From assembly GCA_020632515.1 (NCBI GenBank), contig JACKFK010000006.1, forward strand, positions 75,876 to 139,875: DNA of 64,000 bases. Direction: 5' to 3'. The stretch's first letter is position 1, and each line of letters begins with the position of its first letter. Below, in pieces: positions 51,001 to 54,000 of the stretch. A program made the position numbers. The stretch comes from Candidatus Omnitrophota bacterium. Lineage in GTDB: Bacteria > Omnitrophota > Gorgyraeia > Zapsychrales > Zapsychraceae.

Positions 51001-54000
51001 GAAAGGGTGGATGAGTGAGAGTATATACGGATTAATTCGTAAATTAGAGTTGAAAGAGCATGTTATTTTTTTAGGCTATCTTTCCGATCCGGAATTGAGA
51101 ATGTTTTATAACAAGGCGGAAGCATTTGTTTTTCCTTCTTTTTATGAAGGTTTTGGATTTCCAATCGTTGAAGCTTTTTGTTGCGGAACACCAGTTGTCA
51201 CCTCAAACGTTTCTTCTTGCCCAGAAGTAGCCCAGGACGCGGCGATGATTGTAGATCCTTATGATCCGGAAAGTATTTCCCAGGGAATCGCGCAAATTAT
51301 TAATGATCAAGAAGTAAAGAATATGCTGCGTGAGAAGGGATTACGTCGGGCCGGAGATTTCAATTTTCGTAAGACAGCCAAGAAAACTCTGGATATTTAT
51401 AAAGAAGTTTATCGAATGTAAAAAACCGCAAAGTCACATAGTCATCGCAGCGCATGGGACTTTGTGATCGGGTGACTTTTATGAAAATCAGTGGTTTTAC
51501 CATTGCTCGAAATGCGATTAAATATAATTATCCGATTATTGAATCGATTTGTTCGATTCTACCGATTTGTGATGAATTTATTGTCAATGTGGGCGATTCT
51601 GAAGATGACACATTGAAGTTAATTCAATCAATCTCTGATAAGAAAATTCGGATTATTCAGAATAAGTGGGATTTCTCGCAGGGTAAAGAAGTTTTGTCTT
51701 ATCAAACTAATCTTGCTTTAAAGGAATGCGCAGGTGACTGGGCGTTTTATCTTCAGTCGGATGAAGTTATTCACGAAAAAGATTTGCCGAAATTAGAGAG
51801 TGTCATGCGCAAATATTCAGCGGATTTAACAGTGGATGCACTGCGTTTTCAGTGGTTGCATTTTTATGGAAGTTATTATCGTTATCGGATTGATTCAGGA
51901 TGGTATCAGAAACAAAATCGGATTGTACGTAATAATGGTCAGGTTGAGTCGTATGGAGATGCTTTTGGATTTAAAAGGGTTGACGAAAAACCATTAAATT
52001 GGAAAAATACAAATTGTTTGCTTTATCATTATGGCTGGGTTCATCCTGAAGAAATTATGGCGCAGCGGCGGTTTAATGCCGAAAAAATTGGATTTGTTTC
52101 TTTGACCGACGAGCAAAGAATGGAGCAGCGATATTCCTATGGTGATCTTAATCGATTTCCAGCCTATTTTGGTGCGCATCCAAAATTGATGCGTAATCGG
52201 ATAAAAGAACACAGACTAAGTCAAACGGATTTAAATGACGTGCGTAAGCGTTATTGGTGGCATCCTCTGCGGGCTTTGGGTGTGCGTTATAAAACAGGAA
52301 AGAGATTAAAAAAGGTATTATGACAAAGAAAACAAATGTTTATGCAGTGATTCTTGCTGGTGGTTCTGGAACGCGATTTTGGCCGATGAGCCGGGAAAAT
52401 AAACCGAAACAGTTTTTGGATGTTACCGGTAATGGCACGCTTCTGGTGGAAACATTAAAGAGGATTAAAACCAAAATTAAGCCGGCGCGAATATTAATTG
52501 TCACCAATGCGAAACATCAAAAAGAAATTCAGCGGCAAACGAAGAGTTTGAGAATTCCTGCGGCTAATATCATGCTTGAACCTCAAGGAAAAAATACGGC
52601 GCCGGCAATCGGCTGGGCTGCTGAGCGAATTTACCGTAATGATAAAAATGCGGTGATGGCGGTTTTACCGTCGGATCATCTTATTACGAACAAGAAAAAT
52701 TATTTACAAACATTAGAACAGGCCGTTAAGCTGGCGCAGGAAGATTATTTAGTGACTTTTGGCATTGTTCCGACTCGGCCGGAAACGGGATACGGGTACA
52801 TGCGGATTGCTCCAAAAAAAGGAAATGGTCGGAGCTTATTAAAAGTTGTTCAATTTACTGAAAAACCGAATTTGGCGAAGGCGAAACAGTATTTAAAAAC
52901 TAAGAAATATTTTTGGAACAGCGGAATGTTTGTGTGGAATGTTGCAGTTATTCGAAAAGAATTGCAGGCGTTCACGCCAAAGATTTATCAGTTATTAGCA
53001 GATAAAAGCGAGCTTCAAATCAAACGCAATTGGACCAAGCTGCCGAGTATTTCGATTGATTACGGTATATTAGAGAAATCCGAACGGGTTGTTGCAGTGC
53101 GGGCCGCTAATATCGGTTGGTCAGATTTAGGCAGCTGGGAATCCTTAATGGAAGTTCTTGCCAAAAAGAAAACAGATAATATTTTTAAAGGAGATGTTAT
53201 ACCTATTGATTGCAAAGGTTCCTTAGTCTGGGGGCAGCAGCGCTGTGTGGCTGTTATCGGTATGGACAATATGATCGTTGTTGATACACCAGATGCCTTG
53301 CTTATCTGTTCCAAATCCCAATCCCAAAAAGTCAAAGATGTCGTGGCTTTGCTCAAAGCCAGGCGGCATTTAGTGGCTTGATTATTATTTTAGGAATATA
53401 TTATTGGATTTTTATTGGAAAAATAGTTTTAAAAAAGGGGCATAGTATGTAAGTTGGTGCTATGCCTCTTTTTTGAGAGTTGTATGATCGATTTCATGGA
53501 TTCAGCAATTAAATAATCTAAGGTTATAAATTTGTTGAGTAAATAATTCTCGTATAAAGAAATAAAAAAAGGCCAAGATTTCTCTTGGCCTTAGTACCTC
53601 GTAGCACATTGTTTCCTTAACGAATTAATTTAAGTATATTCGAAAAATATTGTAAAATCAAGCTATAAGATGACTCCAATTAGCCTTAACTCTAATCGGA
53701 GTCAGTTGATTGTTACGCCCTCGGCAGGATTTGAACCCACATCTGTTTCTTCGTTAAGGAAACGCATTATCCAATTATGCTACGAGGGCGTAATATTAAA
53801 CTTATAATACCATCCATATGTGTGGATGTAAATATTTTTTGAATGTTGGTCAAATATAGTAAAAAACAACTAGAAATTTAGAATGTGAAAATCTATCCAT
53901 CATCCAATTAACAAGAAGAATTGTAAATGTTTCGATTAATCATATCCAAACAAATGGAGATTCCCAAGATGGCGAAAGTTATATTAAACGCGAAATAATT

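Follow-up and report, generated by a model that had tools for sequence, protein, structure and literature searches.

A candidate tRNA and anti-tRNA module in a lipopolysaccharide gene cluster of an Omnitrophota bacterium

What might a bacterium do with a tRNA whose body points to one amino acid and whose anticodon points to another, and why should its gene lie in the midst of a lipopolysaccharide (LPS) gene cluster? The question is raised by a 64,000-nt stretch of DNA from a Candidatus Omnitrophota bacterium (assembly GCA_020632515.1, contig JACKFK010000006.1, positions 75,876 to 139,875), here called the window; tRNA coordinates are numbered on it, and the tRNA lies on its minus strand together with a promoter-like site, a trailer and a terminator, which we refer to collectively as the unit (Table 1). 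A first-pass annotation had described the tRNA's anticodon arm as anomalous and had suggested a non-canonical decoder, a regulatory tRNA-like RNA or a decaying gene. We find that the trailer contains two segments complementary to the 5′ half of the tRNA that precedes them. Tentatively, and with confidence somewhat below even, we read the unit as an accessory tRNA and anti-tRNA module of about 270 nt, placed on the opposite strand of a conserved LPS cluster, in which the antisense would mask a non-standard tRNA.

Table 1. Coordinates of the unit and of the interval that holds it, numbered on the window
Feature	Coordinates	Strand	Description
tRNA	53716-53789	-	74 nt, no encoded CCA; Arg-type body (D-loop AAUUGGAUA, A20, G73)
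Anticodon loop with positions 31 and 39	53750-53758	-	C31, loop U32-U33-A34-A35-C36-G37-A38, A39; anticodon AAC at 53755-53753; C31·A39 mismatch
P1, sigma-70-like tRNA promoter (motif match)	53804-53832	-	TTTACA-17-TATTAT, TG-extended
Hairpin 1	53671-53704	-	13-bp stem, 8-nt apical loop AGUUAAGG; -18.7 kcal/mol, z = -5.0
P2, internal promoter-like site	53633-53661	-	TTGATT-17-TATACT; -10 ends 8 nt before antisense block
Anti-anticodon-arm segment	53611-53624	-	UUCGUUAAGGAAAC, perfect complement of tRNA nt 26-39 (14 nt)
Anti-acceptor/D segment	53597-53606	-	UGCUACGAGG, perfect complement of tRNA nt 3-12 (10 nt)
Intrinsic terminator	53560-53592	-	10-bp stem (53592-53569), then U run
Inserted spacer	53382-54079	.	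ManC-like to GT9 interval; holds whole unit on opposite strand

The tRNA fold and the trailer

On the minus strand the tRNA reads GCCCUCG UA GCAU AAUUGGAUA AUGC G UUUCC UUAACGA AGAAA CAGAU GUGGG UUCAAAU CCUGC CGAGGGC G, exactly as the first-pass annotation had transcribed it by hand. It forms a cloverleaf with stems of 7, 4, 5 and 5 bp, and the nucleotides of the tertiary core, as read from the sequence, are all present (U8, A14, G18G19, A21, U33, G46, U54U55C56 and A58). Rfam aligns it over the full length of RF00005 with 54.6 bits, against a gathering score of 29, and the C·A at 31-39 is the sole non-standard pair in that alignment; tRNA was the only Rfam family matched. ARAGORN, which finds this one tRNA in the 64-kb window, types it as tRNA-Val with anticodon AAC. 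The suggestion that the body is Arg-like, with A20, is borne out both by the GGAUA of the D-loop and by the best full-length matches among 50,697 phage records, which are annotated as tRNA-Arg.

Relatives of the tRNA were sought with patterns demanding an Arg-type D-loop and the loop TTAACGA; relatives with other loops would be missed. The pattern search of 185,579 species genomes returned one match in Omnitrophota, and the closest relative is L015, a locus in an Omnitrophota metagenome-assembled genome (MAG). The window and L015 tRNAs are identical at 59 of 74 positions, and the 15 differences are distributed in a telling way: in the stems there are five compensatory changes (5-68, 6-67, 12-23, 13-22 and 28-42), two one-sided changes that preserve pairing and none that is disruptive, and 28 of the 31 unpaired positions are identical, with the anticodon loop and the C31·A39 mismatch retained. 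At the level of sequence comparison such a pattern marks a tRNA fold maintained by purifying selection, and it contradicts the proposal that the gene is decaying. An alignment of eight sequences gives the same picture, with 91% paired cells in the cloverleaf and two-sided changes in 14 pairs; covariation backs all four stems.

Between the 3′ end of the tRNA and the minus-strand terminator lie the two segments complementary to the tRNA, the second beginning four bases after the first. The 14-mer occurs in exact copies at these two sites only in the 64 kb, and a helix of 14 bp was reached by 2 of 2,000 shuffles of the trailer. L015 has complements in the same order, at offsets of 87 and 113 after the tRNA (92 and 110 in the window); there the trailer pairs with nt 27-41 of its own tRNA through 15 contiguous pairs, two U·G pairs included, and GCUACCGG pairs with nt 4-11. 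The U·G pairs exist only in the sense-strand RNA, which favours pairing at the RNA level over a DNA repeat.

The tRNA and its trailer have also changed together. From the window to L015, nt 5 goes from U to C, nt 6 from C to G and nt 28 from U to C, and their trailer partners go from A to G, from G to C and from A to G, respectively, in a spacer that around the trailer blocks is only about 50% identical. These three nucleotides therefore covary with two mutually exclusive partners, one in the cloverleaf and one in the trailer, and this double covariation suggests that both conformations, the cloverleaf and the trailer-paired form, matter. The predicted energies point to the same pair of structures: in both loci the minimum-energy fold of the whole unit places the trailer on the 5′ half of the tRNA, at -80.7 kcal/mol versus -70.0 with the cloverleaf enforced in the window (z = -8.2) and at -90.8 versus -81.4 kcal/mol in L015 (z = -3.8).

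The claim that the gene has its own promoter and terminator holds, P1 being a motif match. Both have equivalents in L015, where TTGACA-16-TATTAT at 4651-4678 aligns with the window's P1 and the terminator lies at 4911-4939. The apical loop of hairpin 1 holds GUUAAGG, the complement of tRNA nt 30-36, and L015 has a stable hairpin at the equivalent place after its tRNA with UAAGG at the apex; GUUAAGG includes the codon GUU and is a possible kissing-loop partner of the anticodon loop. For P2 as a promoter the argument is one of position, which coincides in two diverged loci: the L015 site (TTGACA-17-TAAATT, with TG, at 4837-4865) ends 7 nt before its antisense block, and GCTTGA in the P2 region is a conserved island of the alignment. 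From such a site the antisense block and terminator could, as modelled, be made as an independent RNA of 60-75 nt with a largely open 5′ region. Of the features that define a type I antisense module, the complementarity and the terminator are clear, and the promoter is a conserved motif match.

Two other uses of the trailer region were considered and rejected. A site-specific inversion between the 14-nt arms would leave a tRNA that lacks the D-arm and has its acceptor stem reduced to 5 bp; the U·G pairs point to pairing at the level of RNA. A small peptide (35 amino acids, 53609-53502, preceded by a Shine-Dalgarno-like AAGGAA and an AUG) would be read from the only ORF in the trailer, a frame that extends across the terminator and that L015 lacks.

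Relatives, anticodon loop and decoding

Beyond L015, the searches returned a Patescibacteria MAG (L013), a Roseburia MAG with a weakly tRNA-like sequence (L014), contigs from freshwater whose neighbouring genes are of actinobacterial type (L005/L006; a GNAT acetyltransferase and a GlnR/OmpR-type regulator) and two groups of viral contigs (L016/L019 and L017/L018). Two further orthologs of L005/L006, one of them diverged (L025 and L026), came from a search with the antisense translation of the tRNA; that protein search found only actinobacterial relatives and zero further Omnitrophota copies. Every one of these relatives scores above the Rfam tRNA threshold. An Omnitrophota-specific tRNA pattern had zero matches in viral contigs, and the UUAACGA loop was found in no cultured phage searched. 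The exact 21-mer of the D-arm has zero matches in the 185,579 species genomes, which places the window's species outside these representative genomes.

Several of the relatives have features of their own. The viral tRNA-like gene at L016 3643-3716, also present in L019, has the same CCUUAACGAAG loop and C31·A39, is flanked by the small and the large terminase gene, has an HNH endonuclease gene upstream of it, and forms only about four good pairs in its acceptor stem; L017/L018 are similar, with U·U mismatches. At L005 1840-1930, and equivalently in L025 and L026, the tRNA and a terminator are followed by a direct partial copy of the region from the anticodon arm to the variable loop (TTTCAACGAAGGATCAG, 18 of 24 positions identical to the tRNA), conserved in the three contigs, which may be an old integration scar. 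Base -1 can pair with the discriminator in several members (C-1/G73 in the window, at 53715/53790, and in L015, U-1/A73 in L005 and L013). Because of this pairing ARAGORN starts the gene of the window, L005/L006 and L013 one base early, which puts the anticodon at position 36; the pairing may be due to chance.

To which amino acid does such a tRNA belong? ARAGORN and Rfam agree with the earlier description of the canonical register, that is, an AAC anticodon with A34 above a C31·A39 mismatch. In this register ACG falls at positions 35-37, and A35 replaces C35, which arginyl-tRNA synthetase (ArgRS) normally requires. Outside tRNA-Arg(ACG), the substrate of TadA, A34 is almost absent from bacterial tRNAs, and the window tRNA resembles tRNA-Arg(ACG) in its D-loop with A20, G73, A34, length and body. 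It differs in the loop, which is UUAACGA rather than CUACGAA or CUACGGA (CUACGRA) and has C35 and G36 displaced by one, in the C31·A39 mismatch, in lacking C35 with G/U36, and in being a rare inserted gene rather than a core one. In E. coli, valyl-tRNA synthetase (ValRS) recognizes A35 and C36 in the context of A73, G20, A37 and a wobble U, G or C at 34. The window tRNA has A35 and C36; its G73, A20 and A34 are, as had been noted, a misfit for Val identity by these E. coli rules, and G37 is equally atypical.

The first-pass annotation had also offered a second register, in which a shift of one base gives a perfect 5-bp stem and a 9-nt loop. This is indeed the minimum-energy fold in the window according to ViennaRNA (GUUUC with GAAAC, via G26-C44, around the loop CUUAACGAA), but the family does not conserve the stem that it requires: 26-44 is paired in five of the eight aligned members and unpaired in L015 (C/C), L013 (A/G) and L016 (A/A), so that the closest relative already lacks the pair. 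The 31-39 pair of the canonical register is U-A in five of the eight; the other three, namely the window, L015 and L016, have C·A. Position 31 is a pyrimidine and position 39 an A throughout. In L015 and L016 neither 31-39 nor 26-44 pairs, which leaves a 4-bp stem and nine unpaired nucleotides, and these nine (C31 to A39) are identical in the window, L015 and the phage contig L016. At the sequence level these comparisons are compatible with a loop of 7 nt and with one of 9 nt alike. The description of the loop as that of tRNA-Arg plus two extra bases is not sustained. With an anticodon arm of 17 nt in a tRNA of 74 nt, the usual lengths, the window tRNA aligns to Arg(tct), Arg(tcg) and cyanophage tRNA-Arg genes with no gap in its anticodon arm; the "extra bases" therefore express a resemblance and not a net insertion. 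Mimicry of the 16S anti-Shine-Dalgarno sequence by the anticodon arm was considered and rejected, as it is inconsistent across the family.

Codon usage bears on what the tRNA could decode. In the 48 open reading frames (ORFs) of at least 200 amino acids in the window, CGU, CGC and CGA occur 267, 103 and 175 times (545 in total), and such heavy use means that a dependable Arg-ACG tRNA must exist, a role that an inserted gene as rare as this one is unlikely to fill. Among the 1,207 Val codons, 617 are GUU, more than any other. In the window's genes CGU is followed in frame by UA 15 times where 10.1 are expected and by UU 41 times where 29.5 are expected; although the samples are small, neither combination is depleted, which argues against an efficient quadruplet or quintuplet decoder. 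The proposal of a non-canonical, expanded-loop decoder is thus weakened, by the lack of CGU-U(A) avoidance and of any extra nucleotide, and keeps in its favour the 9-nt loop of the minimum-energy fold.

Insertion into the LPS cluster and other surroundings

The neighbouring heptosyltransferase gene, of the GT9 family, has thousands of homologs, the best of them at most 57% identical and several named Candidatus Omnitrophica or Omnitrophota, and related contigs share the gene order ManC, GT9, DegT, GT2, HAD, MGDG synthase, PriA, Fmt. In the window the ManC-like gene ends at 53381 and the GT9 gene starts at 54080, a gap of 698 nt, whereas the two are separated by 2-29 nt in five related Omnitrophota loci (L020-L024), none of which has a tRNA in this gap or in the fetched flanks; in a sixth locus, L032, a gene likewise abuts GT9. 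The spacer is therefore an insertion.

No recombinase or integrase-sized ORF lies within 53382-54079, no target-site duplication or terminal repeat was found around the unit, and blastn found no extra copy of the inserted 698 bp in the window or in any locus. A long duplication or target-site duplications around the unit were rejected as explanations, only short, low-complexity repeats being present, as was the att site of an integrative element in a tRNA gene: the repeat is inverted and lies over the 5′ half of the tRNA, and an integrase-sized ORF is missing from the spacer.

The L015 unit has a different setting. It lies entirely antisense within a stop-free frame of 2,666 codons that spans the whole 8-kb locus (3-8000, minus strand), contains no cysteine codon and is cut at both ends of the locus; presumably this frame belongs to a giant gene of Omnitrophota. 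From promoter to terminator the tRNA unit leaves the frame unbroken, and homologs of this region were not found at E <= 1e-5. A promoter-like TTGACA-17-GATAAT (11 of 12 positions) at 4674-4702 on the minus strand overlaps P1 and faces away from the tRNA, toward the giant ORF. The two contexts, an LPS cluster and a giant ORF, together with the rarity of the unit, indicate an accessory element able to sit in different places.

Several further observations concern the window's surroundings. The plus strand carries 47 of the 48 ORFs, and GC skew is positive in all 2-kb bins of positions 1-64000 (0.10-0.32); the tRNA unit is the sole clear minus-strand gene and is head-on to everything around it. 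Just past the ManC-like gene, at 53431-53474, a 15-bp hairpin between A and T runs (AAAAAAGGGGCATAG...CTATGCCTCTTTTTT) resembles a bidirectional terminator and is missing from the tight ManC-GT9 junction of the relatives. Two short-read contigs from other samples (L001 and L027) encode ManC-like and GT9 proteins with 100% and 99% amino acid identity to those of the window, and both break at the edges of the spacer, L001 ending 35 nt into the insertion and L027 starting 82 nt before GT9; strain heterogeneity or a repeat there could account for this. On the plus strand, a 45-amino-acid ORF at 53670-53807 is an antisense translation of the tRNA (…AGFEPTSVSSLRKRIIQLCYEG…), and public protein sets include spurious ORFs of this kind from the actinobacterial relatives (P0121 and P0122).

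Alternative readings and significance

How might these parts work together? In the module that we tentatively prefer, an intact tRNA of the tRNA-Arg lineage, with loop UUAACGA, anticodon AAC, G37 and a closing C31·A39, would be accompanied by an antisense directly downstream in the same transcript and perhaps also by a small RNA of 60-75 nt from its own promoter. Pairing with the anticodon arm (nt 26-39) and with the 5′ acceptor/D strand (nt 3-12), the antisense would nucleate on the exposed anticodon loop, to which the copy of the complement in the loop of hairpin 1 sits even closer, and would then fix the tRNA, or else its precursor, in an extended conformation. This fold would conceal both the anticodon and the helix that is the substrate of RNase P and would in this way set the supply of the non-standard tRNA; once freed, the tRNA would act on GUU. 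If it reads GUU with Val it would be harmless, but if it carried Arg the damage would fall on 3.4% of codons, which would be a reason for masking. A bolder version, in which the roughly 270-nt, RNA-only module, having apparently moved between genomic sites, switches mistranslation or recoding on and off, or acts as an addiction or defence element of the toxin-antitoxin kind, we regard as doubtful.

Several points weigh against the masking model. The trailer architecture is known from two loci only, and three compensated positions make up its covariation. The pattern that led to L015 requires the loop, an ascertainment bias under which orthologs with other loops would have been missed. Antisense trailers were found in none of the other UUAACGA tRNAs (actinobacterial, Patescibacteria and phage), whose predicted duplexes are no better than those of shuffles, and since these tRNAs share the loop and lack the trailer, loop and trailer may be separate stories. 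Invasion of a tRNA that is already folded and modified is difficult, and tertiary structure does not enter into the predicted energy difference of about 10 kcal/mol. The promoter calls, finally, are consensus matches in AT-rich DNA, of which 8 were found in the window and 7.6 expected.

The simplest alternative is an ordinary extra tRNA-Val(AAC), derived from a duplicated tRNA-Arg with a remodelled anticodon, charged by ValRS through A35 and C36 and reading GUU, with the trailer as a functionless relic of an inverted duplication. The canonical register, the preference for GUU, an intact cloverleaf under selection and the occurrence of the same loop without a trailer in other lineages are all consistent with it; the four nucleotides atypical of bacterial tRNA-Val are not, the gene is rare and inserted, and a neutral relic would neither track nt 5, 6 and 28 nor stay complementary within so diverged a spacer, which together make this account rather unlikely. 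Given the insertion and a trailer antisense to the 5′ half of the tRNA, the regulatory and non-canonical options of the first-pass annotation are favoured over a plain decoder. Among these, the expanded-loop decoder would have an effective 9-nt loop, be charged by ArgRS through ACG, and read CGN, or CGUU/CGUUA, or cause frameshifting. The C31·A39 mismatch recurs in three lineages, L015 and L016 leave nine nucleotides unpaired, as does the minimum-energy fold in the window, and ACGAA followed by the stem would preserve the stacking on the 3′ side that a normal Arg-ACG loop has. The arm, however, contains zero net extra nucleotides, five of eight members close a normal 7-nt loop with U31-A39, in-frame CGU-UA and CGU-UU are not avoided, and the 545 codons of the CGU/CGC/CGA set call for a more dependable tRNA, so we consider this decoder quite improbable. 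Known expanded-loop suppressors (sufB, hopR-type mutants and engineered loops of 8-9 nt) offer a formal likeness, as the window loop can be read as CU-UAACG-AA, a five-base-anticodon layout; unlike them, the window tRNA has no extra nucleotides in its arm, its loop can close to 7 nt in most relatives, and no codon-context footprint is seen here.

A selfish or defensive RNA-only system of the toxin-antitoxin kind would take the same parts further: a stable mis-decoding tRNA would be harmful, a labile antisense would be its antidote, and loss of transcription would free the tRNA. We judge this unlikely, as the C35 that ArgRS normally needs is missing from the canonical register and charging with a wrong amino acid is an assumption of the model, no precedent for a tRNA toxin is known, and P2 is a motif match. 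In its favour are the autonomy of the unit (promoter, tRNA, internal promoter-like site, antisense and terminator), its rare and patchy occurrence at two unrelated insertion sites, and the toxicity, when expressed, of natural bacterial dual-identity tRNAs with A34 (PMC10404621). A tRNA-like regulatory RNA that does not decode, acting as a bistable transcript of about 230 nt or drawing off a nuclease or a tRNA-binding factor as a sponge or decoy would, would suit the two mutually exclusive structures, each with covariation, and the low z score of the whole-unit fold in the window; the complete retention of the tertiary nucleotides, T-loop and acceptor helix points instead to the tRNA processing and translation machinery, tRNA is the one family that Rfam recognizes, and this reading appears very improbable. 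A decaying pseudogene or a DNA-level inverted repeat without RNA function, for example a recombination site, is largely refuted and the least probable of all. It could appeal to the mismatch in the anticodon stem, to the 125-nt segment that the inverted repeat flanks and to the damaged acceptor stems of the phage relatives L016 and L017, and it is countered by a compensatory change in every stem with none disruptive, by U·G pairs that function only in sense RNA, and by an insertion that brings no recombinase gene.

Among known systems, the closest natural precedent for the window tRNA itself is the tRNAProX family of Streptomyces and Kitasatospora, which combines a Pro body with Asn, Thr or Ala anticodons and A34, is toxic when expressed and is served by a dedicated ProRSx (PMC10404621, PMC11415595). 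Both have the body of one family with the anticodon of another, A34 and an accessory, patchy distribution. The window tRNA differs in its neighbours, which are the ManC-like and GT9 genes with no synthetase gene adjacent, in an insertion without a long ORF, in retaining U33 where tRNAProX has A33 and other oddities, and in its antisense partner, of which none has been described for tRNAProX.

For the trailer the likenesses are found elsewhere. In type I systems such as hok/sok, a 3′ segment pairs with the RNA's own 5′ end and keeps it inactive until it is processed, and the antisense nucleates on an exposed loop; in intron-containing pre-tRNAs a part absent from the mature molecule, the intron, pairs with the anticodon loop. 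The trailer of the window unit resembles both. The unit is a member of neither family: the molecule that would be masked is a tRNA and not an mRNA, no toxin ORF is conserved, and pairing would be by a 3′ trailer or small RNA where the pre-tRNAs use an intron. The 3′ETS-leuZ sponge of E. coli is a functional element within a tRNA 3′ trailer that pairs with other small RNAs. The window unit likewise has an RNA element in a tRNA 3′ trailer, but one that targets its own tRNA. The literature searched on expanded loops, Omnitrophota tRNAs, antisense to tRNA and bacterial A34 tRNA-Val does not describe the arrangement.

These comparisons indicate why the locus deserves attention. Very few natural bacterial tRNAs combine a body and an anticodon that disagree, and the known examples, the tRNAProX family, bring about deliberate mistranslation; annotation pipelines would label the window gene simply as tRNA-Val, which calls for caution. 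Neither Rfam nor the literature searched yielded a tRNA gene with a covariation-conserved antisense directed at both the 5′ strand and the anticodon arm of its own tRNA. If the pairing is real, it would represent a new form of control over the availability of a single tRNA species and would provide a compact (about 270 nt), protein-free and testable system for regulated recoding in an uncultivated phylum.

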